DNA of 64,000 bases from Spirochaetaceae bacterium (GTDB lineage: Bacteria; Myxococcota_A; UBA9160; UBA4427): NCBI GenBank assembly GCA_020632655.1, contig JACKFD010000001.1, positions 611,492-675,491 on the forward strand, in the 5' to 3' direction. The notes under the pieces are model-generated. The model worked only from the letters and a program-made list of their open reading frames with translations. It did no database searches and had not been told where the DNA came from. This document shows, in pieces, positions 1,874 through 46,934 of the stretch; the stretch's first letter is position 1; every line of letters starts with the position of its first letter. The position numbers and the translations under genes are program-made.

Positions 1874-1931
1874 ATCGCAGATTGAGCCGGCCCGGGCCGC
1901 CGACCGCGCCTCGGACCAGGGAGAGGGATGG

Positions 1932-3143: not shown

Positions 3144-3162
3144 TACGAGGTACGGCGCGCAC

Positions 3163-4911
3163 GTGGAGGGGGCCGTCGTGGCGGGGGAGGCCTCGGGCCA
3201 GGAGGACGATGCGCAGGCGCGCACGCGGCTGGGCTGGCTCCTCGCCGCCCGGCTGCTGCTCGCCGGGCTGAGTCTCGGTCTCGCGGTCACGCTCGATCGG
3301 ATCGAGGGGGCGCACGACGACCCCGCGGTCTGGGGCGTCTATTGGACGGTCGCCGCAACCTTCTTCGCCACGATCGTGGGCGCGCTCAGCCTGCCGCGGA
3401 CCTCGAATCCGCATCGCTTCGCCACGATCCAGGTGGCTTGCGACGTGGGCGTCGTGACGGGGCTCGTCTACTTCTCCGGTGCCGGCGAGTCGGTCTTCAC
3501 CTTCCTGTACGCGTTGGTCGTGCTCTACGGGGCGCTCTTCCTGGACCGCACGGGCGTCGTGTTGAGCGCAGCGCTCGCGGCGCTGGGATACGGCTTCGTC
3601 GTGTTCGGAACCGAGCTGGGCTGGCTGCCGGCGACGGGGGTGGAGACGCGGTCGCGGCCGCTGGCCGTGCTCGTCGCCTACTGGGGTTTCCACGCCGGCG
3701 CGCTGCTCATGCTCGGGATGCTCGCCAACACGCTCTCGGCCGAGCTGCGACGGACCGGCGCGGCGCTCGACCGGCGCACCTCGGACCTGCGGCGTCTCCG
3801 GGATCTGCATCTGCGAACCGTCGAGAGCATCGGGAGTGGCCTCCTCACGATCGACGGTGAGGGCTCCATCACCTCGTTCAATCCCGAGGCCGAGCGGATC
3901 ACCGGCATCCCCGCCGCGGAGGCGGAGGGTCGTCGGCTGGTCGAGCTGCTGCCCGGTTCGGCAGAGATCCTGGGTCGCGGCCGGCGGGGCGGAGGGGGTG
4001 AGGCCGCGATCGGTCGCGATCGCATCGCCTACCGCAACCGGAGGGGCGAGGACCTCTTCCTGGGGCTCGCGGCCTCGCGCCTGCGCGGGGACGAGGGTGA
4101 CGAGATGGGCCACGTGGTCATCTTCCAGGACGTGACCGCGGTCGTCTCGATGGAGCAGGAGCTGCGGCAATCCGAGCGACTCGCCGCCGTGGGCGAGATG
4201 GCCGCGCGCATCGCCCACGAGATCCGGAATCCCCTGGCCGCGATCTCGGGCTCCGTGCAGATCCTCCAGACCGGCGAGCTCGAGCAGGACGAGGAGTCCG
4301 AGCGGGCCCGATTGATGCGCATCGTCGTGCGCGAGGTCGACCGGCTCAATCGCCTGATCGGGGACTTCCTCCGCTATTCCCGGCCCGCCCCCCTCAAGCT
4401 CGAGAGCGTACGGCTCGCCGGGCTGATCGAGGAGATCGTCGAGATGGGGCATGCGCCGGCGGCGGAGGGCCTCGAGATCCGACTGGACCTCGATCCGGAC
4501 GTCCGGGTCGAGGCCGACGCGGCGCAGCTGACGGCCGTCGTCTGGAACCTCTGGAACAACGCCATGCAGGCGATGGCGGGGCAGGGGCTGTTGACCGTGC
4601 GGGTCGCTCGCCTCGCGGGGGATCTTCCTCAAGAGCAGGCGCTGGCGGACCGTAACGGACCGGGTGGAGAGGCCTCTGCGCCGCGCTTCACCGCCATGCT
4701 CGAGATCCAGGACTCGGGTCCCGGGATTCCCGAGGACGCGTTGGAGATGATCTTCGAGCCCTTCTTCACGACGAAGCGGGATGGGACGGGACTGGGACTG
4801 GCGACGGTGCAGCGAATCGTGGAGCAACACGGAGGCTCGATCCAGGCCGCGAATGTCGTGGACGGGGGCAGCTGCTTCCGCATCCTGCTGCGTGGGACGG
4901 AGAGCGCCTGA
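3163..4911 (+). CDS. pilS: PilS-like sensor histidine kinase (multi-TM N-terminus, PAS, HisKA, HATPase)
   Basis: Several N-terminal TM helices. H-box AHEIRNPLAAISG, N-box WNLWNNAMQA, G1 DSGPGIP, G2 GTGLGLA. The stop overlaps the pilR start (ATGA-type junction at 4909-4913). Confidence 0.8.
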   Translation: MEGAVVAGEASGQEDDAQARTRLGWLLAARLLLAGLSLGLAVTLDRIEGAHDDPAVWGVYWTVAATFFATIVGALSLPRTSNPHRFATIQVACDVGVVTGLVYFSGAGESVFTFLYALVVLYGALFLDRTGVVLSAALAALGYGFVVFGTELGWLPATGVETRSRPLAVLVAYWGFHAGALLMLGMLANTLSAELRRTGAALDRRTSDLRRLRDLHLRTVESIGSGLLTIDGEGSITSFNPEAERITGIPAAEAEGRRLVELLPGSAEILGRGRRGGGGEAAIGRDRIAYRNRRGEDLFLGLAASRLRGDEGDEMGHVVIFQDVTAVVSMEQELRQSERLAAVGEMAARIAHEIRNPLAAISGSVQILQTGELEQDEESERARLMRIVVREVDRLNRLIGDFLRYSRPAPLKLESVRLAGLIEEIVEMGHAPAAEGLEIRLDLDPDVRVEADAAQLTAVVWNLWNNAMQAMAGQGLLTVRVARLAGDLPQEQALADRNGPGGEASAPRFTAMLEIQDSGPGIPEDALEMIFEPFFTTKRDGTGLGLATVQRIVEQHGGSIQAANVVDGGSCFRILLRGTESA

Positions 4912-6302
4912 TGGCTGCCAAGGACGCTCGCATCCTCGTCGTCGACGACGAGCGGAGCATGCAGGAGTTCCTCGAGATCTTCCTGCGACGCGAGGGCTAC
5001 GGTGTCGTGACGGCCTCCGACGTCGATGCTGCGCTCGCCCATCTCGAGCACGACGACATCGACCTCGTGATCACGGACATGCAGATGCCGGGCAAGACCG
5101 GCCTGGACCTGATCCTCGAGGGCCGAGAGGTGTCTCCCGAGACCGTGATGATCGTCGTGACGGCCTTCGGCACGACCGACAGCGCGATCGCCGCCATGAA
5201 GGAAGGCGCCTACGACTACCTGACGAAGCCCTTCAAGGTCGACGAGCTGCGCATCGTGATCGAGAAGGCGCTCGAGAAGAAGGTCCTCGCGAGGGAGAAC
5301 CGTCGCCTCCGGCAGGAGCTGCGCAGCCAGTCCCGGGATCGCAACATCATCGGGCACAGCCGCGCGATGCAGGAGGTCTACGACCTGATCGCGCAGGTCG
5401 CCGAGACGAAGACGAACGTGCTCGTCTACGGCGAGAGCGGTACGGGCAAGGAGCTGGTGGCCCGTGCCATCCACGACCAGAGCGACCGGCACGACCGTCC
5501 GTTCGTCGCGATCAATTGTGGCGCGATTCCCGAGAACCTCCTCGAGAGCGAGCTCTTCGGTCACGTGAAGGGTGCCTTCACGGGCGCCGTTCAGACGAAG
5601 GAGGGTCTCTTCGAGACGGCATCGGGTGGGACGCTCTTCCTGGACGAGATCGGCGAGATCTCGCTGCCGCTGCAGGTGAAGCTGCTGCGTGCGCTGCAGG
5701 AGAAGACCATCCGTCGCGTGGGCGACACGGTCGATCGGAAGGTCGACGTCCGGATCGTGTCGGCGACGAATCGACGGCTCGAGGACGAGATCGCGGCGGG
5801 TCGCTTCCGCGAGGACGTCTACTACCGGCTGAACGTCATCCAGCTGACGCTCCCGCCCTTGCGTGAACGCCTCGAGGACATCCCGCTGCTGACGCAGCAC
5901 TTCATCCGCCGATTCAACGACGAGCTCGGCAAGAGCGTCGAGGGCATGACGCCCGAGGCTTGCGACCGGCTCGCCCACTACGGGTTTCCGGGGAACGTGC
6001 GCGAGCTCGAGAACCTGATCGAGCGCGCCGTCGCGCTCGCTCGTGGCTCCGTGATCGACTGCGACCTGCTTCCGCCGACGCTGACCGAGGATCGTGCGGG
6101 CCGGGTGGAGCCGAGGATCTCGCAGGATGGCGTGGATCTCGAGCGGATGGTCGCGGACTACGAACGCTCGCTGCTGCTCGAGGCGCTCTCGCTGACCGGA
6201 GGCGTCAAGAAGAAGGCGGCGCGACTGCTCGGCATCACGTTCCGCTCGTTCCGCTATCGGCTCGAGAAGCTCGGCGTGGACGACGGCCGCTCGGACGACT
6301 GA
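4911..6302 (+). CDS. pilR: PilR-like sigma-54-dependent response regulator (REC-AAA+-Fis HTH)
   Basis: REC domain with VVDDE and DLVITDMQMPGKTG. AAA+ Walker A GESGTGKE, an intact GAFTGA motif, GGTLFLDEI, and a C-terminal Fis-type HTH (AARLLGITFRSFRYRL). Confidence 0.87.
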   Translation: MAAKDARILVVDDERSMQEFLEIFLRREGYGVVTASDVDAALAHLEHDDIDLVITDMQMPGKTGLDLILEGREVSPETVMIVVTAFGTTDSAIAAMKEGAYDYLTKPFKVDELRIVIEKALEKKVLARENRRLRQELRSQSRDRNIIGHSRAMQEVYDLIAQVAETKTNVLVYGESGTGKELVARAIHDQSDRHDRPFVAINCGAIPENLLESELFGHVKGAFTGAVQTKEGLFETASGGTLFLDEIGEISLPLQVKLLRALQEKTIRRVGDTVDRKVDVRIVSATNRRLEDEIAAGRFREDVYYRLNVIQLTLPPLRERLEDIPLLTQHFIRRFNDELGKSVEGMTPEACDRLAHYGFPGNVRELENLIERAVALARGSVIDCDLLPPTLTEDRAGRVEPRISQDGVDLERMVADYERSLLLEALSLTGGVKKKAARLLGITFRSFRYRLEKLGVDDGRSDD

Positions 6303-6318
6303 GACGACCTTCGCTCGC

Positions 6319-7710
6319 TCAGTCGCGGATCCCGTATTCCTTCAGCTTGTAGAGCAGGGCACGGTGGCTGATCTCGAGCAGCCGTGCCGCATGCGTGCGG
6401 TTGCCGCCGGTTCGCGCGAGGGCGCGACGGATCAGGCCCGTCTCGAAGCGCCGTCTCGCGCGTCGCAGGCCGAGGTCGGCGTCGTCCGCTCCGACCTCGC
6501 CGTCGGTGGACGGGTGCGCAGCGTGCTCGCCGACGCGCCCGATCGCCCGGGCGACGGCTCCGGCATCGAGGGGACCGTCGGGGCCCGCGATCGAGGCTGC
6601 GCGCTCCACGACGTTCACGAGCTCTCGTAGGTTGCCCGGCCAGTCGTAGGCAACGAGCAGCTCGAGGGCCTCGTCGGAGAGGCTTCTTGCCGGGGCGCTG
6701 CGCGCATTCGTCGCGTGGGAGAGCTGGGCGTAGACGAGCAGGGGGATGTCGTCGCGTCGTGCGCGGAGCGGCGGCACGTCGAGCCGCGCGGCGGCGAGAC
6801 GATCGAGCAGATCCACCTGGATTCCATCGAGGTGCCGCTCTGCTCCGGGGCCATGACGCGTCGAGGCGAGCAGTCGCACGTCGACCGTGCGCGCCTTGTC
6901 CGGCATGTCGCGCGGGCTCGTCGCTGCGTCGGAGAGCACCTCGAGCAGGCGTTGCAGGACGCCGTCGGGCAGCGCCGTGACCTCGTCCAGGAAGAGCGTT
7001 CCGCCCGCGGCGCGTTCGATCAGACCCGCGCGGTGCGGTCCGGGTACGTCACCGCCTGTGCCGTGTGCTGCGGCGAAGAGCTCGTGCTCGAGTCGCGTCG
7101 GGTCCGTCGCGCACGGGACGACTACGAAGGGAGACCGGCGACGCGAGGACTGCGCATGGAGTGCGCGCGCAATCGTCTCCTTGCCGACGCCGGCCTCGCC
7201 GGTGATCAGCACGGGCACGTCGAGTCCGGCGACGCGTTCCAGACGCTCGAGCAGCTCGATCATGCCGTCCGAGGCGGCGACGATCGTCCGCTCCCCGAGG
7301 AGTCGCTCGACGTCGCGATCCGCCAGCGCGAGGCCGTGGAGGAGGTGTCGTCGCGCACGTGCGCGGTCGAGGACGAGCAGCACCTCCTCCGCCAGGAAGG
7401 GCGCGAGCAGGAGTTCGGTGGCGAAGGTCTCCTTGCGGAGGGCCCGCAGGCTCTCCGGGCCTCGGTCGCCCAGCAGGACGACCGAGATCTCGGGCTGCCG
7501 CCGAAGCGCCTGCGGAAGCAGGGGCAGCCCGTCGAGTCCTCGCGCGCCGGGCTCGCAGAAGAGGACGTCGAAGGGGCGGCGGTCGAGCGGGGGCACGGCC
7601 GCGGGACCGGGGAGTGCCTCCACGACCTCGTGCCCCTCGGCCAAGAGGGGGCCGGCCACGCGCCGTCGGACGTCGGGGTCTTCGTGGACGATGAGGATGC
7701 GGTCGGGCAC
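6319..7710 (-). CDS. Atypical bacterial enhancer-binding-protein-like regulator (pseudo-receiver, AAA+ without GAFTGA, Fis HTH)
   Basis: Walker A GEAGVGKE, Walker B GGTLFLDEV, C-terminal HTH AARLLEISHRALLYKLKEYGI. The position of GAFTGA reads HGTGGD. The receiver-like N-terminus has E at the phospho-acceptor position (DVLFCEPG). The GTG start at 7710 (VPDRILIVHEDPD) is my choice; the track ORF extends to 7926 through Arg-rich sequence. Confidence 0.75.
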   Translation of the reverse strand: MPDRILIVHEDPDVRRRVAGPLLAEGHEVVEALPGPAAVPPLDRRPFDVLFCEPGARGLDGLPLLPQALRRQPEISVVLLGDRGPESLRALRKETFATELLLAPFLAEEVLLVLDRARARRHLLHGLALADRDVERLLGERTIVAASDGMIELLERLERVAGLDVPVLITGEAGVGKETIARALHAQSSRRRSPFVVVPCATDPTRLEHELFAAAHGTGGDVPGPHRAGLIERAAGGTLFLDEVTALPDGVLQRLLEVLSDAATSPRDMPDKARTVDVRLLASTRHGPGAERHLDGIQVDLLDRLAAARLDVPPLRARRDDIPLLVYAQLSHATNARSAPARSLSDEALELLVAYDWPGNLRELVNVVERAASIAGPDGPLDAGAVARAIGRVGEHAAHPSTDGEVGADDADLGLRRARRRFETGLIRRALARTGGNRTHAARLLEISHRALLYKLKEYGIRD

Positions 7711-7999
7711 GCGGGGCCTCGAGTGGGGCGCACCCACGATCGGGTGGGGACACCGACGGCTTCGGCCGGATCTCCGGCCTCCTGCGCTCGATCGGTGTGC
7801 GGCGCGCCGGGCTGAAGGGGCATGCGTGCCGCGGAACCCCCTCAAATCGTCCGCCCGATTGCCATGCGACTGCATGCGGATCAGATGTGATCCGCCGCAC
7901 AACGAAGCCGCGTCCGGCCGCCTCAAGTCCCTGAAACAGCGATCCGATACCCCAACGGTCGGACCCGGCCAGAGCGGATCGGGTCACGGAGGACGATCG

Positions 8000-8257
8000 G
8001 TGGCCAGCAATCAGGTTCAGAGGTTTCGAGAGAACCTCATGATGAGCAAGGCGGAGCTCGCGCGGAAGGCGGGGCTCTCGACGTTGACGATCGACCGGGT
8101 CGAGGCCGGCAGACCCTGCCGTCTCGACACCAAGCGGAAGATCCTGCTCGCCCTCGGTCTCAAGGTCTCCGACAAGGATCGGGTATTCGGCTCGACCGAT
8201 ACACCGAGCGACGCGGCCGCCGCCGCTGGTTCGGGCTTCTCGGGCTACCGGCAATAG
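8000..8257 (+). CDS. Small XRE-family helix-turn-helix protein
   Basis: The 3' part of a long spurious track ORF. GTG at 8000 is preceded by GGAGG. The HTH_3-like segment is MSKAELARKAGLSTLTIDRVEAGR. Confidence 0.6.
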   Translation: MASNQVQRFRENLMMSKAELARKAGLSTLTIDRVEAGRPCRLDTKRKILLALGLKVSDKDRVFGSTDTPSDAAAAAGSGFSGYRQ

Positions 8258-8279
8258 GTTCGCGGAGGAAACCGTCGGA

Positions 8280-9359
8280 ATGAAGTTCCATCTACCGGGA
8301 TTCGGCAAGGCCTCGGTCATCGGGCTCGACATCGGATCGAGCTCGATCAAGGTCGTCGAGATCGCACAGAAGAGCAGGGACAAGGGCTTCGACCTGCGCG
8401 GGCTGGGTCGAGCCGCGCTTCCGCCGGAAGCGATCGTCCAGGGCGCGTTCCTCAATTCGAGCGCGATCGTCGACGCGATTCGCGACGCGATCGAGGATGG
8501 CCGCATCAAGGGCAAGGACGTCGCCGCGTCCGTGTCGGGCCACTCGGTCATCGTGAAGCGGGTCTCGCTCCCGCAGATGAGCCGGGAGGAGCTCGAGGAC
8601 CAGATCCAGTGGGAGGCGGAGCAGTACATCCCGTTCGACGTGAACGAGGTGAACCTCGACTTCCAGATCCTGGACGCGAACGAAGACGAGGGACAGATGG
8701 ACGTCCTGCTCGTCGCGGCCAAGAAGGATCTGATCGACGACTACGTGCAGGTCATCACGGAGGCGGGCCTGAATCCCGTGGCGATCGACGTCGCCGGCTT
8801 CGCCGTCCAGAACGCCTACGAGCTGAACTACGACCCCGAGCCGGATGCCGTGACGGCGCTCGTCAACATCGGGGGCCAGGTGGTCAACATCAACGTCATC
8901 CGGAACGGGATCCCCGCCTTCACGCGGGACATCATGACCGGCGGCGCCCAGTACACCGAGGAGATCCAGAAGGCCCTCTCGGTCTCCTTCGACGAGGCGG
9001 AGCGGATCAAGATCGGCAGCTCCGGCGATGATCAGGTCCAGGACGTGATCCCGCAGGAGGTCGATCAGGCGATGCGGAACGTCTCCGAGGCGGTGATCGG
9101 GGAGATCTCCCGGTCGCTCGACTTCTTCATGGCCACCACCACCGATGCGCGGATCAGCAAGGTGCTGCTCTCGGGCGGCGGCTCGAAGATCAGCGGCCTG
9201 GCCGCGGCCTTCAAGGAGCGGACCGGACTCGAGACGGAGGCGATGAACCCGCTGGCCCACATGCTTCCGAGCAAGGGCTTCGATCCACAGCTCCTCGAGG
9301 ATCTCGGACCGCAGCTCGCCGTCGGGATCGGGCTCGCGTCGCGGAGGATCGACCGATGA
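8280..9359 (+). CDS. pilM: Type IV pilus assembly protein PilM (actin-like ATPase fold)
   Basis: The N-terminus VIGLDIGSSSIKVVE and overall length (359 aa) fit PilM. It is followed by pilNOPQ with overlapping or tight junctions. Confidence 0.92.
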   Translation: MKFHLPGFGKASVIGLDIGSSSIKVVEIAQKSRDKGFDLRGLGRAALPPEAIVQGAFLNSSAIVDAIRDAIEDGRIKGKDVAASVSGHSVIVKRVSLPQMSREELEDQIQWEAEQYIPFDVNEVNLDFQILDANEDEGQMDVLLVAAKKDLIDDYVQVITEAGLNPVAIDVAGFAVQNAYELNYDPEPDAVTALVNIGGQVVNINVIRNGIPAFTRDIMTGGAQYTEEIQKALSVSFDEAERIKIGSSGDDQVQDVIPQEVDQAMRNVSEAVIGEISRSLDFFMATTTDARISKVLLSGGGSKISGLAAAFKERTGLETEAMNPLAHMLPSKGFDPQLLEDLGPQLAVGIGLASRRIDR

Positions 9360-9928
9360 TGATGGAAATCAATCTCCTCCCGCATCGCGAGGCGCGCCGC
9401 GCCGCGGATCTCCGGGAGAGCGTGGCCGTCCTGGTGCTGGGCCTGATCCTCGTGGGTGCGGGCATCTTCTTCGCGGACAAGAGCCTCCGCTCGGATCTCT
9501 CGACGACGGAGTCGATGATTGCCCAGCTCGAGGCCGACATCAAAAGGTACGAGCCTCAGCAGAAGCTCGTCGCCAAGTTCAAGCAGCAGAAGCGCAAGCT
9601 CCAGGACAAGCTCGACGTGATCGACAGTCTCGAAGCGGCGCGGACGGGGCCGGTTCGCGTGCTCGACGAGCTCTCCGAGACCGTACCCGAGCGGCTCTGG
9701 CTGACGTCGATGTCCGCGAAGGGCAAGGCCCTCACGCTCGAGGGGCAGAGCCTGGATACGGGCGTGGTCGCCGACTTCCTCCGCGGTCTGAATGCGTCGC
9801 CCTACTTCAAGAACGTGGACCTCGACAAGACCACGGGTGGCGCCGTCGTGAACGGCGTGCGCCTCGTCAACTTCGTGATCCGCGCGGACATGGCGTCGCC
9901 GGTCGAGTCGAAGGAAGCCTCTTCGTAG
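9356..9928 (+). CDS. pilN: Type IV pilus assembly protein PilN
   Basis: The INLLPHRE N-terminal motif, a single TM, then a coiled-coil and ferredoxin-like part. The start overlaps the pilM stop. Confidence 0.85.
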   Translation: MMMEINLLPHREARRAADLRESVAVLVLGLILVGAGIFFADKSLRSDLSTTESMIAQLEADIKRYEPQQKLVAKFKQQKRKLQDKLDVIDSLEAARTGPVRVLDELSETVPERLWLTSMSAKGKALTLEGQSLDTGVVADFLRGLNASPYFKNVDLDKTTGGAVVNGVRLVNFVIRADMASPVESKEASS

Positions 9929-9952
9929 GCCGCCGTTTAAGGGAGAATCACC

Positions 9953-10546
9953 TTGGAACTCAACGTCGATTTCGACGAGAAGCTCGAGCAGCTGGCGAAG
10001 GTTCCGAAGCCGATCCGGCTCGCGGTCGTCTCGGCCGTCCTCGTGGCGATCGCCGTGGGCTACTGGTTCCTCGCGTACCAGCCCGCGCTGAGCGAGAAGA
10101 CGGTCCTGACGGCGAAGGCCCAGGAGCTCCAGAGGGAGCTGAACAACGCCCGAGCCGTCGCAGCGAAAGGCCCGGCCTTCGAGGCGGAGATCGCGGGTCT
10201 CGAACGCGACCTCGAGCTCGCCCTGAAGCAGCTCCCGAACCGCAAGCAGTTCGAGGACCTGCTCCAGGACATCAGCACGGCGGGCAAGAAGGTCGGTGTG
10301 ACGATCAAGTCCATCGATCGTGCGGCGGAGGTGCCGCGGGACTTCTATGCGGAAGTCCCCTTCGATCTCGAGATCGAGGGCTCCTATCACGACCTCGCGC
10401 GATTCTTCGAGATGGTCGCCGCCCTGCCACGCATCGTGAACATCGGAGCGCTGGACATCGACGTCGCCTCCGAGAACCAGACGGCGACGCGCCTCAAGGT
10501 GAGCGGGAAGGCCAAGACCTACCGCTTCCTGAGCGACGAGGCCTGA
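9953..10546 (+). CDS. pilO: Type IV pilus assembly protein PilO
   Basis: Single TM, coiled-coil, PilO-like C-terminus, and position between pilN and pilP. TTG start with GGGAGA upstream. Confidence 0.8.
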   Translation: MELNVDFDEKLEQLAKVPKPIRLAVVSAVLVAIAVGYWFLAYQPALSEKTVLTAKAQELQRELNNARAVAAKGPAFEAEIAGLERDLELALKQLPNRKQFEDLLQDISTAGKKVGVTIKSIDRAAEVPRDFYAEVPFDLEIEGSYHDLARFFEMVAALPRIVNIGALDIDVASENQTATRLKVSGKAKTYRFLSDEA

Positions 10547-10583
10547 GGTCATGAGGGTGGGAGCCGAGGAGCGGGGAGCTTTT

Positions 10584-11168
10584 ATGGGCATGAGACGGAC
10601 GTCGATCCTCCTGCTCGCGACCTTCGTCGTCTTGACGGCGGGCTGTGGCGAGGAAGACAACACGGGAGCCCCGACGAAGGCCGACTTCGCGGCCGAGCGC
10701 AAGGCGCTCGGGAAGGGCGGCAAGGCGCTCGCCAGGAAGTCGGACGAGAAGACGGGCCGCGACCAGGGCAAGGGCAAGTCGGGCGATCCGGTCGCCAGCA
10801 CGGGCTACGCGCAGGTCGAGCAGGACTACTTCTACGATGCTCGTGACAAGCGCGACCCGTTCCGCTCGTTCCGATTCGTGGAGGAGGATCCCGAAGAGAA
10901 GAACTTCGGGCCGCTCGGAGAGTTCGAGGTGGGTCAGCTCGAGCTCTCCGCCGTGATCTGGGACGCGACGAATCCGCGGGCCCTGATCCTCGATCCGGGC
11001 GGTCGCTCGTACATCATTCGCGAGGGCTCCGCGATCGGGAAGAACAACGGTCAGGTCATTCACATTGGCGACAACCTCGTCCTCGTCAAGGAAACCTACG
11101 AGAACTTCGCAGGTGAGCGGACGACGAAGGACGTGGAGTTGCGGATTCGTTTGAGCCAGGGAGGGTGA
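10584..11168 (+). CDS. pilP: Type IV pilus assembly lipoprotein PilP
   Basis: Signal peptide with lipobox LTAGC and an RDPFRSF motif typical of PilP. The track ORF starts at 10551; I prefer ATG 10584 (MGMRRTSILLL). Confidence 0.75.
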   Translation: MGMRRTSILLLATFVVLTAGCGEEDNTGAPTKADFAAERKALGKGGKALARKSDEKTGRDQGKGKSGDPVASTGYAQVEQDYFYDARDKRDPFRSFRFVEEDPEEKNFGPLGEFEVGQLELSAVIWDATNPRALILDPGGRSYIIREGSAIGKNNGQVIHIGDNLVLVKETYENFAGERTTKDVELRIRLSQGG

Positions 11169-14100
11169 GCTCGATGGTCGATCCGAGATTCGGATGGCTC
11201 GATAGGTGGATCCAGGGCGTGATCGTGGCGAGCGTCGCCGGGATCGTCGCACTGGGTTGTGCTTCGCCGCAGACGCCTGCTGGAGGGGCGTCGGACGAGA
11301 TGGCTCAGACGCTCGAGGGGGTCTCGGTCGCCCGAGAGGGCGAGGGCAGCGTCGTGCGGCTCGAGGGACTCGTGGACCCGATCTACTCGGTCACGAGCTC
11401 CGACGACGGCGACGTCGTCGTCGTGGAACTGGTGGGGGTGTCCGGCCCGGCCGCGACGAGCCTGATGGGTGAGATGGAGAAGACCCAGCAGGTTGCCGCG
11501 TATGATGGCGTCGTGGACCTGGTCACGATCTCGAGCTTCGACGACGAGGGTGGCGAGACGCCGCTCACGCGAGTCGAAGTCGTGCTCGCGGCGGCCGGGG
11601 AGGCCACGGTCTCGTCGACCGGCTCGGCCCTCGAGATTGCGATCCGACCCGCGACGGCGATGGAGTCCGGCGAGACGGCCTTCCTCGACGAGGACGCCGA
11701 GCTCGAAGAAGACCTCGACGAGGACGTCGAATCGATGGATTCCGACGTGACGCCCTGGAGCGAGGAGCTGGGCTTCGATGCGGAGTCGGGATTCGACGCC
11801 GCACCGGTCGCGAGCTCGACGGTCGCGCCGGCCCCGGCGGCGACGGAGCTCTCGAAGGTGTCGACGAGCCGTCACGGCGACGGCGTGCTGGTGTCGCTGG
11901 AAGCCGACGGGAACATCGGCAGCCTCGAGGCCTTCACGCTCTCGAATCCGGCGCGACTGGTGATCGATCTCCCCGGGCTCGTGATGGGGCCCGGTGCGAA
12001 GACGGTCGAGGTGGGCTCCGCGCTCGTCGAGCGTGTTCGGGTCGGCGCCCACTCCGGCAAGGTCCGGATCGTCGTCGACGGTGGCGCCGAGGCCGGAGAG
12101 TTCGAGGGGCGCCAGGTCATGCCCGGAGCGACGGGTGTCTGGGTGGCGATCGGTGAGGGCGCCGAGCTCGCGGATGCGATGAGCGCGGCCCTCGCGGCCT
12201 CGGAGTCGGCCTGGGCGGCGCGTGCGCCGGCAGGGTCGTCGGTGGCAGACGACGAGGAGCTCGAAGCGTTCGAGGCGCTCGTCGCCGAAGACGCAGACGC
12301 AGACGCAGGAGACGAGATGCTCACGGGCGGCGCCACCTTCGAGGAGGCGCCGGCGGCCCCGTCGGCGATGCCGGCGGAGCCTGCTCTGCCGCTCGCCGAG
12401 GTCTACGGTCTTCACTACGAGCGCACGGAAGGCATGGACCGCACGGCGATCCTGTCGGACGACACGATCGCCTACGAGACGAGTGAGCCCGACGCGACGA
12501 CGCTGGTCGTACGGATCCCGAACGCTCGGATCTCGCAGGAGGCGTCGGATCGGATCTTCCCGAAGACGGGGGGGCCGGTCTCGCTGATCCATGCGTTCCA
12601 GCAGCCCGAGGTGGACGTGCCGGAGGTGCGGGTGGTCTTCACGCGCGCACCGGGACAGAAGCCCGTGATCAGCCGGCGTGGCTCGATGCTCTTCGTCGAC
12701 TTCGAGGATCGGGGCGTCGCGGCGGCGCCGCCGCCGGCCTTCCCGAACGCGGGCGGCGAGGCGTCGCTCGCGTCGACCATGCCCACGGCCGAGAGCCTGG
12801 CGACGCGGTCGGCACCGACTTCGGCCGAGGGGGCGGAGCTCGCCTTCGCGACCGGGGGCTCGATGGACGCGGGTGGAGCCACGGGATTCGGCATGGCCGA
12901 GGAGGAGACCTTCTCCACCGCGCCGATGGGGCTGGATCCGGCGGCGGCCGTCGCTGCGATGCCTGCGGCCGCGGATACGGCGGCCGTCTGGACGCCTCCC
13001 TCGGCGCCCGCCGTGCCGGCGGCCGTGGAGGTGCCGGCGGCGATCGAGGTGCTCGAGGAGGGCGGTCTGATCGACGGCAAGGAGTACCGGGGGCGACGCG
13101 TCTCCCTCGACTTCAAGGACGTCGCGATCGCCGACGTGCTCCGTCTGATCGCCGAGGTGAGCGACCTCAACATCATCGCCGGGGACGAGGTCTCCGGGAA
13201 GGTGACGATCCGCCTGGTGGAGGTGCCCTGGGACCAGGCCCTCGACGTGATCCTCATGACCAAGGGCCTGGGCTTCGTGCGGGTCGGCAACGTCCTGCGC
13301 ATCGCGCCGGCCGACGTGCTCAAGGCCGAGGAGGAGGTCCGCCTCCAGGAGCGCCGGAACAAGGAGAAGCTCGAAGATCTCGAGGTCAAGCTCCTCCCGG
13401 TGAACTACGCGTCCGTGAAGGACACGGAGAGCCTGGTCAAGCGGCTGCTCTCGGCCCGCGGCACGGTCAACCTCGACGAGCGCACGAACACCCTCATCAT
13501 CAAGGACATCAGCTCCGTGATCGACGAGGCCAGCGCGCTCATCGCGGCGATCGACACGCAGACGCCGCAGGTCATGATCGAGGCCAAGATCGTCGAGGCG
13601 AACCTCGACTTCTCCCGCGAGCTCGGCTCGGTCTGGGGGGTCCAGACGAACCAGTTCGTCGACCCCTTCAACCAGACCGGTCTGCGCCAGGACCTCGGCA
13701 GCGAGGATCTGACCTTCGTCGACCAGAACAGCCTGGCCTTCGCCAACCCGATCACCTCCGTGCCCACGGGCCTCATGACCCTCGGCGCCCTGATCCTCGA
13801 TCAGGACTTCCGGGTCGATGCCCAGATCCAGGCGGCGGAGTCCTCGGGTGACGGCAAGGTCGTGTCGAGCCCGCGCATCGTGACCCTCGACAACCGGGAG
13901 GCGAAGATCGAGCAGGGTGTCTCGATTCCCTTCCAGACCTTCGAGGGTGGCGATGCCAAGCTCGAGTTCGTGGACGCCGTGCTCTCGCTGATCGTCACGC
14001 CGCACATCACGGCGGACGAGAGCATCATCATGGAGATCGAGGTGACTCGGAACGCGCCGGACGATTCGGTCCAGACGCCGACCGGCTCGCCCGCGATCGC

Positions 14101-14329
14101 CAAGAACGCGGCGGAGACGGAGACGCTCGTGAAGGACGGTCAGACGCTGGTGCTCGGTGGCATCTACACCATCGTCAAGAGCCAGCGGCAGAGCCGGGTT
14201 CCCTATCTGCACCGGATTCCGGTGATCGGGAACGCCTTCAAGAACAACGAGGTCACCGACAATCGCAAGGAGCTGCTGGTCTTCGTGACGCCGCGCATCG
14301 TGCGGCTGCCGGAGATGGCGCGCAACTAG
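11165..14329 (+). CDS. pilQ: Type IV pilus secretin PilQ with multiple N-terminal AMIN-like domains
   Basis: C-terminal secretin core (VSSPRIVTLDNREAKIEQGVSIPF..., VLGGIY...VPYLHRIPVIGNAFK). Three AMIN-like beta-rich modules are separated by acidic/Ala-Pro low-complexity linkers. The start overlaps the pilP stop. Confidence 0.92.
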   Translation: MSSMVDPRFGWLDRWIQGVIVASVAGIVALGCASPQTPAGGASDEMAQTLEGVSVAREGEGSVVRLEGLVDPIYSVTSSDDGDVVVVELVGVSGPAATSLMGEMEKTQQVAAYDGVVDLVTISSFDDEGGETPLTRVEVVLAAAGEATVSSTGSALEIAIRPATAMESGETAFLDEDAELEEDLDEDVESMDSDVTPWSEELGFDAESGFDAAPVASSTVAPAPAATELSKVSTSRHGDGVLVSLEADGNIGSLEAFTLSNPARLVIDLPGLVMGPGAKTVEVGSALVERVRVGAHSGKVRIVVDGGAEAGEFEGRQVMPGATGVWVAIGEGAELADAMSAALAASESAWAARAPAGSSVADDEELEAFEALVAEDADADAGDEMLTGGATFEEAPAAPSAMPAEPALPLAEVYGLHYERTEGMDRTAILSDDTIAYETSEPDATTLVVRIPNARISQEASDRIFPKTGGPVSLIHAFQQPEVDVPEVRVVFTRAPGQKPVISRRGSMLFVDFEDRGVAAAPPPAFPNAGGEASLASTMPTAESLATRSAPTSAEGAELAFATGGSMDAGGATGFGMAEEETFSTAPMGLDPAAAVAAMPAAADTAAVWTPPSAPAVPAAVEVPAAIEVLEEGGLIDGKEYRGRRVSLDFKDVAIADVLRLIAEVSDLNIIAGDEVSGKVTIRLVEVPWDQALDVILMTKGLGFVRVGNVLRIAPADVLKAEEEVRLQERRNKEKLEDLEVKLLPVNYASVKDTESLVKRLLSARGTVNLDERTNTLIIKDISSVIDEASALIAAIDTQTPQVMIEAKIVEANLDFSRELGSVWGVQTNQFVDPFNQTGLRQDLGSEDLTFVDQNSLAFANPITSVPTGLMTLGALILDQDFRVDAQIQAAESSGDGKVVSSPRIVTLDNREAKIEQGVSIPFQTFEGGDAKLEFVDAVLSLIVTPHITADESIIMEIEVTRNAPDDSVQTPTGSPAIAKNAAETETLVKDGQTLVLGGIYTIVKSQRQSRVPYLHRIPVIGNAFKNNEVTDNRKELLVFVTPRIVRLPEMARN

Positions 14330-41430: not shown

Positions 41431-42402
41431 ATGGACCGGGGCATGCTGCTCGATCTCGCCTTCCTGATCCTGCTCGTGGGGCTCGCCGCGCTCGGAGCGT
41501 GGCGGGGTGCCATCCCGAGTGGCTCGGGCCTGCTCGCCATGATCGCCGGCTACGCCGGGGCGATCGTGGCCGCCAGCCTGGGCGCGGGCTGGGTTGCGGA
41601 GACGCTGGTCGTCTCGCCGTGGATCGCGCCGGCGATCGCGGGCACGATCGGCTTCGCGGTCGCCTACCTGGTGGCGAGCGCGGCGGCGGACGTCGCGGTC
41701 GCCTGGGATCGGGCGCGGGTCGAGCGCGGTGGACGCGGCGCCGTCGACCGCGGATTCGGAGGGCTCTTCGGGCTCGCGCGCGGCGCGCTGCTCGTGGTGC
41801 TGCTCGCGATCGGCACGAGCTGGCTCGACGCCGCCCGGGATCTCGGGGTCGTCGAGGGTCTCTCGGGCGTGCCGGAGACCGACGGGTCGAGCGTGGCGCG
41901 GGCCTCTGGCGATCTCGTCGAGGCGGCGGTCTCGACGGCGCTCGCCGATGCGGGGCCGGCGGCCGAGGTCGCGGCGCGCATCACCGCCCGGCCCGGTCGC
42001 ACGCTCGGCAGCATGCAGGGGCTGCTCGAGGACGAGCGCTTCTCGGGACTCTTCGAGGACGCGATGGTCTGGACCCTGATCCAGAACGGGTCGATCGACT
42101 ACGCCATGAATCGCGCCTCGGTCCGGTCGATCGTGAACGATCCCGAGATGCGAGGGCGATTCGCCGATCTCGGTCTCGTCGGCGAGGCCGCGCGCGAGGA
42201 TCCGGCGGCGTTTCGCGAGGCGATGTCCGGCGTGCTCGCGGAGGTCGGGCCGCGGGTCGCGCGGCTGCACCAGGACGAGGAGCTGAAGGCGCTGGCGACC
42301 GATCCCGAGATCGTCGAGCTCGTCCAGGCCGGAGACACCCTTGCCCTGATGGGTCATCCCCGGATCCAGCGAATCGTCGCCCGCCTGTCGAGCGACCTCT
42401 AG
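41431..42402 (+). CDS. CvpA-family membrane protein with a soluble C-terminal extension
   Basis: N-terminal 4 TM helices in the CvpA arrangement (LLDLAFLILLVGLAALGAWRG...). ATG at 41431. Confidence 0.65.
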   Translation: MDRGMLLDLAFLILLVGLAALGAWRGAIPSGSGLLAMIAGYAGAIVAASLGAGWVAETLVVSPWIAPAIAGTIGFAVAYLVASAAADVAVAWDRARVERGGRGAVDRGFGGLFGLARGALLVVLLAIGTSWLDAARDLGVVEGLSGVPETDGSSVARASGDLVEAAVSTALADAGPAAEVAARITARPGRTLGSMQGLLEDERFSGLFEDAMVWTLIQNGSIDYAMNRASVRSIVNDPEMRGRFADLGLVGEAAREDPAAFREAMSGVLAEVGPRVARLHQDEELKALATDPEIVELVQAGDTLALMGHPRIQRIVARLSSDL

Positions 42403-42492
42403 AACGACGGGCTGGCCACGCGTCCGAGTGGAGCACGCGGCGCGACCGCTCGATTCGGCGATGGCCCGGCGAGGACACACCGACAACACAGA

Positions 42493-42525
42493 GAGCCCGC
42501 GAACCGGCCGGGGCCGGGCGGGCTC
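42493..42525. terminator. GC-rich hairpin between convergent cvpA and the small ORF/sulfotransferase unit
   Basis: GAGCCCGC ...17 nt... GCGGGCTC with no clear U-tract. Confidence 0.35.
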
Positions 42526-42558
42526 GAGATCCGGCTCGTGCCGACTCGCCGGACGCGC

Positions 42559-42732
42559 CTAGAAGAGCGGCCGGTCGTCGCCGTCCGGCGCGTAGGCCGA
42601 GATCTCACAGCAGAGCGAGATCTCCTGCGCGGACGGTCGCTCGAAGCGGGCCGTGCCGGGGCGGCTCGGGTCGGGTCGGTTCGGGTTCGCGGCGCCGAAG
42701 GACGTCGCGGGTCGCTGGATGCGTTCTTCCAT
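42559..42732 (-). CDS. 57-codon small ORF downstream of the sulfotransferase (candidate modified peptide)
   Basis: MEERIQRPATSFGAANPNRPDPSRPGTARFERPSAQEISLCCEISAYAPDGDDRPLF. About 90% G/C in the third codon position, like the real genes here. It sits 59 bp after the sulfotransferase stop on the same strand, and a hairpin follows. No clear SD, and no homology that I can assert. Confidence 0.35.
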   Translation of the reverse strand: MEERIQRPATSFGAANPNRPDPSRPGTARFERPSAQEISLCCEISAYAPDGDDRPLF

Positions 42733-42791
42733 GACGCGGGGATATAGCACAGCACCGGCGTCGCCCGGCCAGTCCACCGACTCCGCTCGGG

Positions 42792-43817
42792 TCAGCGCAG
42801 CAGGACGTCGCAGACCTCGCGCAGCTTCCGCACCAGCCGGCCGAGGGCGTTGTCCGGGCGGATCCGGCGCCGCACCGCCACGAGCAGCCGTCGCTCGAGG
42901 GCGTAGCGGGTGAGCGGGGGGCGGGGGGCGCGGCGACCGCCCAGGTCGATCGCATCGAGCTCCGCCGCGATGCCCGCGCGCTCGAAGCCCCAGGTCTCGA
43001 GGTCCTCGTCGGCCAGCCGCGCGAGGATCGCTCGGTAGAGCGCCACGCGTTCCGGCCGGCCGGTCGCTGCCCGTGCCCATTTCGACAGGCTGGCCGTCGT
43101 CGGGCGCGTCTCGCGGGAGACGTTGGTCGGGTCGCCGAGTCCGCGGGTCGACTCGCCGCGTGCGTCCGGGGCCTCGCCGTAGTCGACCATGCCCGCGGAC
43201 TCCTCGATGCCCAGGAAGGCGCAGAGCTCCCGGGCATGGCGCTCGGGCTCGCGCACGAGCGCCTCGTAGCGGATCGCGTGGATCGGCACCGGCCGGGTGC
43301 GCAGGAAGCGCGCGATCGCCGGGACGTAGCGCTCGAGCAGCGGATTGTGCTCGTGCGCGACGGCGTCGTCGCCGTCGAAGAAGGAGTCGACGTAGGAGGA
43401 CCAGACGGCCATCGGATGTCGCGTCAGCACGACGTAGCGCGCCTGCGGATAGAGGCGCGCCAGGAAGTCGAGCGAGAGTGCGTAGGCCGGCGTCTTGTCG
43501 AGCAGGAGGGACGCATCGTCTCCTCCGGCCGCGCGTCGGAGGCCCGCGTAGATCGCGTCCGTGTACGCGCGCAGCGCGTCGAGGTAGGCCGCCTCGCCGC
43601 CGGGCAGGGCGGCGACCAGCGCCCGCGCGGCCGTGCGCGTGATGACGGGATCGTAGGGGGCGCGCTCGACGCTCTCGAAGTAGCCGAGGTGCGCGATGGG
43701 CGTGATCAGGTGCGGCTCTTCGGGCGCGACGATCGCCGGGTGCGCGCCGAGCATGCGGCTCAGCATCGTCGAGCCCGAGCGCGGCGATCCGATCAGAAAG
43801 ACGAGCCGATCCTGCAT
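42792..43817 (-). CDS. Sulfotransferase family protein (TPST/RaxST-like, Sulfotransfer_3-type)
   Basis: The 5'-PSB motif VFLIGSPRSGSTMLSRMLGAHP resembles the tyrosylprotein sulfotransferase GxPRSGTTL motif. A 3'-PB-like region RYVVLTRHP is present. ATG at 43817 (MQDRLVFLIG). Confidence 0.8.
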   Translation of the reverse strand: MQDRLVFLIGSPRSGSTMLSRMLGAHPAIVAPEEPHLITPIAHLGYFESVERAPYDPVITRTAARALVAALPGGEAAYLDALRAYTDAIYAGLRRAAGGDDASLLLDKTPAYALSLDFLARLYPQARYVVLTRHPMAVWSSYVDSFFDGDDAVAHEHNPLLERYVPAIARFLRTRPVPIHAIRYEALVREPERHARELCAFLGIEESAGMVDYGEAPDARGESTRGLGDPTNVSRETRPTTASLSKWARAATGRPERVALYRAILARLADEDLETWGFERAGIAAELDAIDLGGRRAPRPPLTRYALERRLLVAVRRRIRPDNALGRLVRKLREVCDVLLR

Positions 43818-44780: not shown

Positions 44781-44883
44781 ATACTCGGCGCCTCGATGGG
44801 GCCGTTTCGGTCGGGGTGCAATGGGACTTGAACGCTCCAGCCCGACGCGAGCGGGCCGCGCGGGCGCCGTGGTCGGAGGGGCG

Positions 44884-45795
44884 ATGGACGACGCGACGGG
44901 CGCGGCGGCAAAGGCCGGAGTGGAAGTGGGGGGATCGCCCGGGATGCGACGGAACGGACTCGAGCTCGCGGTCGTCGTCGTGACGCTCGTGCTCTGGATC
45001 CCGGGGCTGCGCGTGCTGGCCGGCGTGTATGGCGAGGTCGAGTGGGCGTCCCACGGCTTCCTCGTACCGATCGTCGCGCTCTGGGCGGCGACGGCCCATC
45101 GCGCCGCCCTGGCCGATCGGCCGGCCCGGCCGCTGCGAGGCGGCGTGGCGCTCCTGGGTGCGCTCGTCCTCGCCTATCTCGCGGCGCTGCTCTTCGGTAA
45201 TCCGAGCGTGATCGGCCTGGTCGGCGTCGCGACCGTGGTCGGTCTGGTGGCGGCGCTGCGGGGGCTCGCGTGGGTGCGCACGCTCGCCTTTCCGCTCGCC
45301 TATCTGCTCTTCATGGTCCCTCTGCCGACGGCCTGGATCACGCCCGTCATCGTCCGGCTCCAGCTGCTCGTGAGCAGCGTCGCCGTCGCGTTGCTGCGGG
45401 CCTTCGACGTGGCGATCCATCGCGACGGCAACGTGCTGACGCTGCCCGGGGACGTCACGCTCTTCGTGGCGGAGGCCTGCAGCGGCATCACGTCCCTCGT
45501 CACGCTGCTCCCGATCGGCGTCTTCATCGCCTACTTCACGGAGTCCGTGCCCTGGCGACGCGTCGCGCTGGTCGCGGCGGTCGTCCCGATCGCGCTGCTC
45601 GGCAACCTGATCCGGGTGGTGCTGACGGTGGCCCTCGCGATGCGGGTCGACGTCGCCTTCGCGACGACCGGACCCGTGCACGAGTGGGCCGGCGTCGCGA
45701 CCTACGTGCTGGGCTGTCTGTGTCTGCTCGCGGTCGGCGCGGGGCTGCGACGGCTGGGCGGCGGGGCGCGCTCGGACGCCGGCGTTCCGGCATGA
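44884..45795 (+). CDS. Exosortase-family transpeptidase (subtype undetermined)
   Basis: A polytopic membrane protein with the exosortase signature residues: FVAEACSG (catalytic Cys), GNLIRV (Arg) and VHEWAG (His). ATG at 44884 follows GGAGG; the track ORF begins at 44821. Confidence 0.8.
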   Translation: MDDATGAAAKAGVEVGGSPGMRRNGLELAVVVVTLVLWIPGLRVLAGVYGEVEWASHGFLVPIVALWAATAHRAALADRPARPLRGGVALLGALVLAYLAALLFGNPSVIGLVGVATVVGLVAALRGLAWVRTLAFPLAYLLFMVPLPTAWITPVIVRLQLLVSSVAVALLRAFDVAIHRDGNVLTLPGDVTLFVAEACSGITSLVTLLPIGVFIAYFTESVPWRRVALVAAVVPIALLGNLIRVVLTVALAMRVDVAFATTGPVHEWAGVATYVLGCLCLLAVGAGLRRLGGGARSDAGVPA

Positions 45796-46934
45796 CGGGC
45801 TCGGGGGCAGGGGGCGGGCCGCTCGAGGAGCGCATCCGCCGCGTGGGGCTCGTGCTCGGTCTGGACGCGATCGGCTTCGCGCCGGCGCGTCCGAGCGCGC
45901 GTACCCGATTCCTGCGTGAGTGGGTCGCGCGTGGGCACGCCGGCGGGATGGACTGGATCGCCCGCCGGCTCGAGGAGCGCATCGATCCGCGCCTCGTGCT
46001 CGAGGGGGCGGAGTCGATCGTGGTGGGCGCGCTCGTCTGTGCGCCGCCGCCGGCCCGCCTCGAGGACGGGTCGGGGCCACCGGGGTCGGGTCGCACGGAC
46101 GATCGCACCGAGCCCCGGGGTCGGGTCGCCCGTTATGCCGGAGGGGACGACTACCACGAGGTGCTGCTCGAGCGGCTTCGGGCCGTCGAGGCGGCGCTGT
46201 CCGGTCTGGCCGGGCGGGCGGTGCGCACGCGCTGCTATGTCGACACGGGGCCGGTCCTCGAACGCGCCGCCGCCGAGGCGGCCGGTCTGGGCTGGATCGG
46301 CCGCAACAGCTGCCTGATCCATCCCGAGCTCGGCTCGCATCTCATGCTCGGCGTGATCCTGACGGACCTGCCGCTCACGACCGATGCGGCCGTTGCGGAC
46401 CATTGCGGGACCTGCCGCGCCTGCCTCGACGCCTGTCCGACCGACGCCTTTCCCGAGCCCTACGTGCTCGATGCCACGCGCTGCCTCTCCTACACGACGA
46501 TCGAGCATCGCGGCGCGATCCCCGAGCCCCTGCGCGCGGCCCAGGGCGCCCACGTCTTCGGCTGCGACGTCTGCCAGGACGTCTGCCCCTGGAACCGCAG
46601 CCGTCCGCGCGTGCCGCTCGCCGATCCGCTCGGCCTGCGCGCCCGCCTGCGTGCGCGCGCCGCGTGGCAGGCGCCGACCCTCGCCTGGCTCCTCGACCTC
46701 GAGCCGGATGCGTTCGCGGAGCAGGCGCGTCACACCGCGCTGCGCCGCGCCGGCCATCGTGGCCTCGTGCGGAACGCCCTCGTCGCGGCGGGCAACGCGG
46801 CGGACCCCACGCTGCGCGACGCCGTGGCGCGGCACGCTCGAAGCGCGGACCCGCTTCTGCGCGAGCACGCCGAGTGGGCGCTCGCCCGGATCGACGCGGG
46901 CGCGCCTGCCGCGTCCGCGTCGGATCCCGCCTGA
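45792..46934 (+). CDS. queG: Epoxyqueuosine reductase QueG
   Basis: Two 4Fe-4S motifs (CGTCRACLDACP; CDVCQDVCPWN), CLSYTTIEHRG, and C-terminal HEAT-like repeats. The ATG overlaps the exosortase stop (ATGA). Confidence 0.88.
   Translation: MTGSGAGGGPLEERIRRVGLVLGLDAIGFAPARPSARTRFLREWVARGHAGGMDWIARRLEERIDPRLVLEGAESIVVGALVCAPPPARLEDGSGPPGSGRTDDRTEPRGRVARYAGGDDYHEVLLERLRAVEAALSGLAGRAVRTRCYVDTGPVLERAAAEAAGLGWIGRNSCLIHPELGSHLMLGVILTDLPLTTDAAVADHCGTCRACLDACPTDAFPEPYVLDATRCLSYTTIEHRGAIPEPLRAAQGAHVFGCDVCQDVCPWNRSRPRVPLADPLGLRARLRARAAWQAPTLAWLLDLEPDAFAEQARHTALRRAGHRGLVRNALVAAGNAADPTLRDAVARHARSADPLLREHAEWALARIDAGAPAASASDPA

Follow-up and report, generated by a model that had tools for sequence, protein, structure and literature searches.

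A 57-codon open reading frame (ORF) located immediately downstream of a sulfotransferase gene in a 64,000-nt stretch of contig JACKFD010000001.1 from a Spirochaetaceae bacterium (hereafter, the window) was identified as a genuine conserved gene, and the core of its product is, by profile comparison, homologous to PqqA, the precursor peptide of pyrroloquinoline quinone (PQQ). With a probability of roughly 0.6, we consider it an independent gene for a divergent PqqA-family precursor, which unlinked enzymes of the PqqD/PqqE type would be expected to convert to PQQ or a closely related product, the sulfotransferase being a clade-specific neighbour. An earlier note, made from the sequence of this DNA alone, had suggested a sulfated-peptide system of the RaxX/RaxST kind. 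The features it described, namely the sulfotransferase, the 57-codon ORF 59 bp downstream, a GC content of about 90% at third codon positions (GC3) and a hairpin at 42493-42525, were all present (Table 1); the identity of the peptide and the transcript structure are read differently here.

A PqqA-like peptide encoded by a conserved small gene

The window peptide (MEERIQRPATSFGAANPNRPDPSRPGTARFERPSAQEISLCCEISAYAPDGDDRPLF, 57 aa) combines an N-terminal half that varies in sequence and length among family members with a nearly invariant stretch formed by the last 28 residues. The core consensus reads [F/Y/W]-E/Q-x-P-x-x-x-x-I-x-L-x-C-E-I-S/T-A/S-Y-A-P-D-x-x-x-P-L-F-COOH, in which P33, L40, C42, E43, S45, Y47, A48, P49, P55, L56 and F57 are invariant. 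Specifically, the Glu-X-X-X-Tyr pair of E43 and Y47 was retained in 13/13 and 27/27 aligned members, and we take these two residues to be the counterparts of the Glu-X3-Tyr pair that PqqE cross-links in the established PQQ pathway. When family members were scanned permissively against Pfam and NCBIfam, PqqA was the one biologically coherent family: PF08042 matched two of 13 members (best E value 0.044) and five of 27 (best 8.4e-7, the five including the bona fide PqqAs), and the TIGR02107 match stood at 0.074. Moreover, a profile of the sulfotransferase-linked peptides matched, among its weaker hits in 1.84 billion proteins, two bona fide PqqAs, P0310 (MWQKPTAIEMSCGCEINMYAPAEGDRPLF; E = 3.9e-4) and P0317 (..KTWNRPDFQEVSLGCEINCYAPAEL; E = 8.1e-4). 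The former is followed by PqqB, PqqC, PqqD and the radical S-adenosylmethionine (radical-SAM) enzyme PqqE, and the latter, on an Acidobacteriaceae-like contig, by PqqB-C-D-E with a SPASM domain. When the sulfotransferase-linked peptides were compared by hhalign with a set of seven PqqAs, of which two came from databases and five were textbook sequences, the result was 97.2% probability and E = 3.9e-11, with F30-F57 aligned over the whole PqqA core. On these sequence grounds, the peptide is a divergent relative of PqqA and is not RaxX-like. According to Haft et al., curators of TIGRFAMs, every PqqA homologue detectable at that time was a PQQ precursor (PMC3531188).

Like PqqA (PF08042, TIGR02107), the members are small peptides with an aromatic-x-x-Pro motif, a hydrophobic stretch and the invariant Glu-X3-Tyr, and some bona fide PqqAs, P0310 among them, also have a Cys before the Glu and a YAP..GDRPLF tail. 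The family differs in its length of 43-60 aa, where some 20-30 variable residues precede the core, in scoring under the curated thresholds and being annotated as 'hypothetical protein', and in its setting, because the gene is not near pqqB/C/D/E and usually has a tyrosylprotein sulfotransferase (TPST)-like gene before it and a DUF502 or CvpA gene after it. Thus, the defining motif and the profile homology of PqqA are present, whereas the curated hidden Markov model threshold is not reached and linkage to pqqBCDE is not seen.

The Tyr in an acidic context that had been put forward as a sulfation site does exist, with Glu at −4 and Asp at +3, +5 and +6 of Tyr47. The homology of the core to PqqA explains this conserved Tyr, together with the acidic residue at −4, as the PqqA Glu-X3-Tyr pair. 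Nor is the acidic context specific to sulfation, since the same tail, together with the Cys before the Glu, occurs in P0310, whose pqqABCDE operon has no sulfotransferase. The string GAANPNRPDPSRPG, which had been likened to the RaxX/PSY core, belongs to the N-terminal half, which is variable and indel-rich, and even close orthologues do not conserve it; similarity to RaxX/PSY was rejected on this ground and in view of the PqqA-like conserved core.

The small ORF is a genuine conserved gene. Its GC contents at codon positions 1, 2 and 3 are 0.655, 0.586 and 0.897, the last of which matches the GC3 of neighbouring real genes (0.89-0.925), and independent gene callers list a 57-aa product at its position. 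A scan with the enzyme as query, taking one genome per species, returned 18 loci, including 16 informative orthologue loci (52-78% identity). The ORF was found directly downstream of the sulfotransferase orthologue in 13 of these 16 and 1.2 kb downstream of it, past an M50-like ORF, in L013; it was absent beside the enzyme in the remaining two (L016 and L017). A metagenome scan with the peptide motif added 80 loci, every one high-GC, and the gene recurs in about 95 related high-GC (Myxococcota-type) loci. Across 13 loci, variable sites fell at positions 1, 2 and 3 of 10, 11 and 26 of the 28 core codons, and the nonsynonymous (dN) and synonymous (dS) divergences averaged 0.13 and 0.93 (dN/dS ~0.14), with values of 0.07 and 0.76 for the last 17 codons. 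In addition, the peptide profile retrieved 1109 clusters (90% identity) from 5.8 billion proteins; among the matches listed, this family had no Pfam domain, and any named member was a 'hypothetical protein'. A similar profile, built from database-derived members, retrieved 82 representatives from 1.84 billion 50%-identity clusters. No second copy of the peptide was present in the window.

A chance ORF of a high-GC genome was therefore rejected on the basis of GC3, synteny and dN/dS. More broadly, an unmodified small protein, or a chance or regulatory reading frame between convergent genes, is in our view a very improbable account of the ORF. The peptide is indeed short, with no above-threshold Pfam match and no modifying enzyme demonstrably linked to it, but the 28-residue core is under purifying selection, the family runs to 1109 clusters, the PqqA homology spans exactly the modified residues, and no Rfam family matches the region, with nothing relevant in either the spacer or the 3' region. 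Loss of conservation and codon drift, which the earlier note had named among the grounds for abandoning its proposal, were not seen; the reality of the small ORF was instead borne out by its conservation beside enzyme orthologues, its codon-level constraint and the RNA contigs described below.

Several database matches to the family were set apart. P0260 (65 aa) and P0304 (120 aa) carry the peptide fused to a ribosomal protein S21-like or polysaccharide-deacetylase-like N-terminus; these fusions are probably gene-calling read-throughs that reveal other genomic contexts of the peptide. P0319, from a low-GC marine context with no pqq genes, was discarded as a probably marginal or spurious match, and P0278, a eukaryotic repeat protein, as a spurious one. 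P0299, P0302 and P0316 lie on short contigs and added nothing new.

Promoter-like motif, hairpin and RNA coverage

Of 91 loci, 75 have a TGCTA(T/G/A)NN motif upstream of the peptide core, irrespective of which gene lies upstream, and in 69 of these 75 it stands 15-17 nt from the ATG. TGCTA occurs in 3.9% of random 200-nt windows, and TGCTATA occurs once in the 64-kb window (0.15 expected). The TGn, the TATA-rich hexamer and the spacing would fit an extended −10 promoter that starts transcription at or just before the ATG, and the form and spacing of the motif suggest that the peptide mRNA is probably leaderless or nearly so. A scan for canonical sigma-70 promoters made no calls.

Downstream of the gene, the 91-nt context of the hairpin folds at −49.1 kcal/mol (z = −2.25). 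The hairpin has no T-run and was not called by a terminator scan; in the orthologous loci L004-L006 and L008, a canonical hairpin with a T-run follows the peptide gene directly. RNA contigs end at 42515 (X25), 42516 (X43) and 42531 (X26). The transcript probably ends at the hairpin, which may act for the convergent cvpA-like gene as well.

Wastewater metatranscriptomes yielded contigs over the peptide gene at 42430-42716 (X17), 42515-42679 (X25) and 42531-42700 (X26), all assembled at low depth and open to DNA carry-over; the X25 contig is the deepest genuine piece in X25. The enzyme gene was covered in only one of the three metatranscriptomes (X17), and no RNA contig from any of the three bridges the spacer at 42717-42808. 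The conserved promoter-like motif and RNA coverage with no bridging contig favour a separate short transcript over a two-gene one, so the two-gene transcript proposed earlier appears unlikely. The pqqA gene of methylotrophs is a similarly short unit, with strong signals of its own and a hairpin behind it. The X17 contig differs from the window at 42490-42491 (A>G, G>A), just 3' of the hairpin, presumably through strain variation.

The sulfotransferase, a frequent neighbour of the peptide gene

The enzyme matched Pfam Sulfotransfer_3 (PF13469; 4.9e-34) and Sulfotransfer_1 (6e-9) and has thousands of relatives, the top 120 being orthologues at 72-100% identity. By sequence, its nearest solved structures are the sulfotransferase (ST) domains of OLS (4gox, 8e-18) and CurM (4gbm, 1.5e-14), followed by TPST1 (~5e-10) and TPST2 (1e-7). 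The AlphaFold model (predicted local distance difference test score 77, predicted template modelling score 0.79) gave TPST1 and TPST2 as the top Foldseek matches (3e-9; template modelling scores 0.5-0.65), then OLS and CurM ST, and an NCBIfam match to the carbohydrate sulfotransferase NoeE was partial and far sub-threshold. The placement in the TPST/RaxST branch given in the earlier note was broadly right. Because the motifs that bind 3'-phosphoadenosine 5'-phosphosulfate (PAPS) and the catalytic motifs are invariant in 33 orthologues (5'-phosphosulfate-binding (5'-PSB) loop G10-PRSGST17, P32-EEPH36, D107-KTP110, R133 and S141), the enzyme is probably catalytically intact and active. Sequence and fold place it in the PAPS-dependent TPST/CurM-ST branch; the acceptor cannot be inferred from sequence, and placement in the TPST branch is not diagnostic of a peptide substrate.

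With TPST1 and TPST2 (PDB 5wrj, 3ap1), the best matches to the predicted structure, the enzyme has in common the 5'-PSB loop, the 3'-phosphate-binding Arg/Ser and the catalytic Glu region. Identity is only 18-25%, however, and the window enzyme is cytoplasmic and bacterial and has in addition, at its C-terminus, a conserved helical stretch of about 90 residues whose end reads CDVLLR. With the CurM and OLS ST domains, its best sequence matches, it shares P-E-x-H (PELH there, EEPH here) and DK(S/T)P. Those domains belong to polyketide synthases and act on beta-hydroxyacyl groups on an acyl carrier protein (ACP), whereas the window enzyme is free-standing, with no polyketide synthase, ACP or thioesterase nearby.

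ORFs of the related loci were clustered, and the cluster representatives were annotated with Pfam. A single, variable syntenic block was recognized: QueG and an exosortase stand on the opposite strand and are followed by a GH1 beta-glucosidase (optional), the sulfotransferase, either an M50/CBS peptidase or a PilZ/cyclic nucleotide monophosphate (cNMP) gene, the peptide, an optional DUF502 gene and a convergent CvpA gene; the PilZ/cNMP variant is the one in the window. The enzyme lies directly upstream of the peptide gene in 37 loci and upstream with an M50/CBS peptidase gene in between in 11, making it the immediate or next-but-one upstream gene in 48 of the 59 informative peptide loci. Another 11 loci contain the peptide gene with at least 1.5 kb of upstream sequence and no enzyme, two (L016 and L017) contain an enzyme orthologue with no peptide gene, and 36 were too short to tell. 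In several short loci, an exosortase or GH1 gene stands directly upstream of the peptide gene in the place of the enzyme. The peptides of enzyme-containing loci do not differ in sequence from those of loci that lack the enzyme. The two genes are therefore separable, with at least 11 loci having only the peptide gene and two only the enzyme, and the sulfotransferase is a frequent, non-obligatory neighbour. Conserved synteny within one clade explains the adjacency at least as well as a shared pathway does.

An alternative explanation is that the TPST-like enzyme O-sulfates Tyr47 (or a Ser/Thr) of the adjacent peptide, yielding a sulfated, ribosomally produced and post-translationally modified peptide (RiPP) of a new class on a PqqA-like scaffold. 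The position of the enzyme gene, upstream on the same strand in 48 of 59 loci, suits this idea, as does the persistence of the pair amid different flanking genes (L010, L013, L014, L026 and L106), but a GH1 beta-glucosidase, an M50 peptidase and a PilZ gene fill the same syntenic slot equally often, which makes adjacency weak evidence. Similarly, the enzyme orthogroup is seldom found without the peptide (2/16 loci), yet L016 and L017 do keep the enzyme alone, and the peptide gene, which carries a promoter-like motif of its own, is kept unchanged in at least 11 loci where no enzyme lies within 1.5 kb or more. The nearest structural relatives of the enzyme are tyrosylprotein sulfotransferases and its catalytic motifs are invariant; by sequence, it is closer to the CurM/OLS acyl-ACP sulfotransferases. 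The acidic tail around Tyr47, which would suit a sulfation site, recurs in the bona fide PqqA P0310 with no sulfotransferase nearby, the Glu-X3-Tyr and W/F/Y-x-x-P motifs are accounted for by PqqD/PqqE recognition, and PqqA homology already explains every conserved residue. Sulfatase genes adjoin the peptide gene in four loci (L028, L029, L063 and L080), which would also fit sulfation; no exporter, leader-cleavage motif or conserved RaxX similarity accompanies the pair. Taken together, sulfation of the peptide by its neighbour appears unlikely.

RaxX/RaxST of Xanthomonas is a sulfonatyrotide RiPP system (PMC11143521, bioRxiv 10.1101/442517), and the present locus resembles it in that a sulfotransferase gene adjoins a small peptide gene with a Tyr near acidic residues. 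It differs in having no RaxA/RaxB-type peptidase-containing exporter and no double-Gly leader, in that the RaxX/PSY-like string is unconserved and the peptide is a PqqA homologue, and in that the two genes have separate promoter signals and are each found without the other. The earlier note had correctly recorded that no peptidase-containing ABC exporter is adjacent and that the peptide has no double-Gly motif: no exporter of the RaxB/RaxA type adjoins the pair in the window. Sulfation is very rare in RiPPs, being recorded for RaxX, some methanobactins, conopeptides and two lanthipeptides (PMC11143521). The locus is also a warning that an acidic setting of a Tyr beside a sulfotransferase is insufficient evidence of a sulfation substrate. 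Were Tyr47 sulfated, the peptide would represent just the second type of Tyr-sulfated RiPP in bacteria, RaxX being the first.

The sulfatase genes (PF00884) mentioned above are convergent and lie just after the peptide gene (Table 1). Their sub-lineage also has the sulfotransferase-M50-peptide order, and these neighbours could be a coincidence or a sulfation/desulfation pair. In L081, a second Sulfotransfer_3 protein and a short-chain dehydrogenase are encoded upstream of the peptide gene and a PQQ-dependent dehydrogenase gene; this sulfotransferase has 22% identity to the window enzyme and belongs to a different subfamily, and it was treated as a coincidence.

Predicted maturation, gene context and wider meaning

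In the reading of the peptide as a PqqA-family precursor, the promoter-like element TGCTATAT of the gene would drive a short, probably leaderless mRNA that ends at the hairpin; the conserved motif and the RNA coverage were observed, and the start site is placed from the motif. The 57-aa product has a variable N-terminal extension and the conserved PqqA-like core. Judging from the homology and from knowledge of the PQQ pathway, a PqqD-type chaperone would bind this core and a radical-SAM enzyme of the PqqE type would cross-link its Glu43 to its Tyr47, after which the core would be excised and oxidized to PQQ or a PQQ-like product. The maturation enzymes, if they exist, would be unlinked, given their absence from the window and from 6-10 kb around the gene in related loci. 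The sulfotransferase, probably intact to judge from its motifs and with a predicted TPST/CurM-type fold, shares a variable syntenic slot with the peptide gene. No CxxxCxxC motif was present in the 38 window ORFs that passed the GC3 filter, in an ORF list that is incomplete. A PqqC profile search matched only relatives of the two query lineages, and the few named were Acidobacteriaceae.

Several observations weigh against this reading. The window peptide itself gave no PF08042 match at E <= 10, family members fall under the PqqA gathering score (for example, P0289 with 14.9 bits against a cutoff of 21.1), the sulfotransferase-linked ones without exception, and the N-terminal extension of about 29 residues is atypical for PqqA. 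Searches by tblastn with PqqB, C, D and E found no homologue in the 64-kb window, nor did they in some 100 related loci (585 kb in total), and pqqB/C/D/E never occur within 6-10 kb of the peptide gene in these loci; canonical pqqA adjoins pqqB. A link to PQQ comes from a PQQ-dependent dehydrogenase (PF01011, 4e-26 and 2e-19) encoded 19-106 nt after the peptide gene on the same strand in L047, L068, L081 and L098, in a different context that lacks the usual synteny, but the four proteins are orthologous and 74-94% identical and therefore represent one lineage-level association only. The RNA evidence for a separate transcript consists of the low-depth contigs noted above. Finally, a functional link between enzyme and peptide is plausible, because the TPST-like enzyme is upstream in 48 of 59 loci and is seldom found away from the peptide (2/16 genome loci).

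A further alternative is that the peptide is the PqqA-like substrate of an unlinked radical-SAM or other maturase that makes a non-PQQ cross-linked cofactor or RiPP, with the sulfotransferase unrelated to it. This would be in keeping with the fact that pqqBCDE linkage was never seen in about 100 loci and that the family falls under the PqqA model thresholds. The long N-terminal extension, the invariant Cys42 and the conserved PLF C-terminus could also be taken as signs of another product, although a Cys before the Glu and a PLF tail are found in the bona fide PqqA P0310 as well. Tight coupling to DUF502 (8-13 nt) in 27 loci and the M50/CBS gene directly upstream in 17 likewise suit a pathway of its own; the PQQ-dependent dehydrogenase that follows the peptide gene in one sub-lineage speaks for PQQ, and the literature describes no PqqA homologue whose role lies outside PQQ (PMC3531188). 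In our estimate, a non-PQQ product is rather unlikely.

The DUF502 gene (cluster c1) encodes a membrane protein and in many loci follows the peptide stop codon at a gap of 8-13 nt; the window has none at this spot, the convergent CvpA gene taking its place. The M50 peptidase (cluster c4) is site-2-protease-like with CBS domains and is a conceivable trimming protease.

The family is an unannotated, extended PqqA subfamily, unlinked to pqqBCDE and widespread in one clade. Its PqqA-like identity changes how PQQ capacity would be scored across a clade of Myxococcota that live in activated sludge, marine and soil environments. A pqqA that is unlinked, carries a promoter-like motif of its own and encodes a long N-terminal extension would, if true, be an unusual organization of the PQQ pathway. 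We found no description in the literature of a PqqA-like peptide paired with a sulfotransferase or of pqqA in Myxococcota. Should the clade lack pqqBCDE, or should the peptide be acted on by its TPST-like neighbour, the family would point to a new cofactor derived from a peptide or to a new sulfated RiPP. We see only a slim chance that this large Myxococcota-type clade, whose more than 1000 peptide clusters keep the PqqA-like peptide unlinked to pqqBCDE and mostly after a TPST-fold sulfotransferase, harbours a new sulfated or re-purposed PqqA-scaffold pathway, as would follow if pqqBCDE were absent or Tyr47 or a core Ser were sulfated.

Table 1. Coordinates of features in the window and, where a locus is named, in related loci
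Feature	Coordinates	Strand	Remark
Sulfotransferase gene, 341 aa, starts MQDRLVFLIGSPRSGSTMLSRMLGAHP	42792-43817	minus	Sulfotransfer_3 match
57-codon peptide ORF	42559-42732	minus	ATG 59 nt past sulfotransferase stop codon
−10-like motif TGCTATAT	42742-42749	minus	17 nt before A of peptide ATG
Variable N-terminal extension, residues 1-29	42646-42732	minus	indel-rich, poorly conserved (alignments A1, A2, A4)
Conserved peptide core F30-F57	42562-42645	minus	aligns with PqqA, W-x-x-P through E-X3-Y to C-terminal tail
Glu43 codon	42604-42606	minus	
Tyr47 codon	42592-42594	minus	
GC-rich hairpin GAGCCCGCCCGGC...GCGGGCUC 3' of peptide gene	42493-42525	minus	fold computation
Convergent CvpA gene after peptide gene	41431-42402		
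Exosortase coupled to QueG	44821-45795, ~45795-46934	plus	
Putative type IV pilus block	~100-14300	plus	by eye
Large ORF, 978 aa	35104-38130	minus	coding-type GC3, no Pfam match on record
Large ORF, 487 aa	38219-39724	minus	coding-type GC3, no Pfam match on record
PQQ-dependent dehydrogenase	L047:776-1483, L068:6208-6921, L081:2507-4672, L098:312-1442		
DUF502 membrane protein gene	L114:826-1512, L050:640-1386		and 25 other loci
M50/CBS peptidase gene	L029:149-1255		and 16 other loci
Sulfatase genes	L028:4605-6182 and 6945-7781, L029:1550-3127, L063:782-2359, L080:1583-1855		convergent
Second Sulfotransfer_3 protein and short-chain dehydrogenase	L081:1-1398, ~1295-2302		

The window as a whole has a GC content of 70.6%, and look-ups of sequencing runs traced its organism to activated sludge and wastewater; a database copy of the sulfotransferase carries the label of a Myxococcota metagenome-assembled genome. 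PilZ/cNMP, exosortase, QueG, CvpA, ChaC and GreB genes are the neighbours of the pair. The exosortase, of the EpsH family and XrtA/XrtW-like, scores under the subfamily cutoffs; its pairing with QueG is kept across the clade, and no PEP-CTERM or exopolysaccharide genes lie nearby. The idea that the peptide is an exosortase substrate was rejected because, by inspection, it has no PEP-CTERM-type C-terminus. Elsewhere in the window, two large ORFs lie on the minus strand, and the putative type IV pilus block comprises PilB/PilT/PilC-like ATPases and platform, a two-component pair and PilM-Q-like genes; shikimate-pathway genes, also assigned by eye, come after it.

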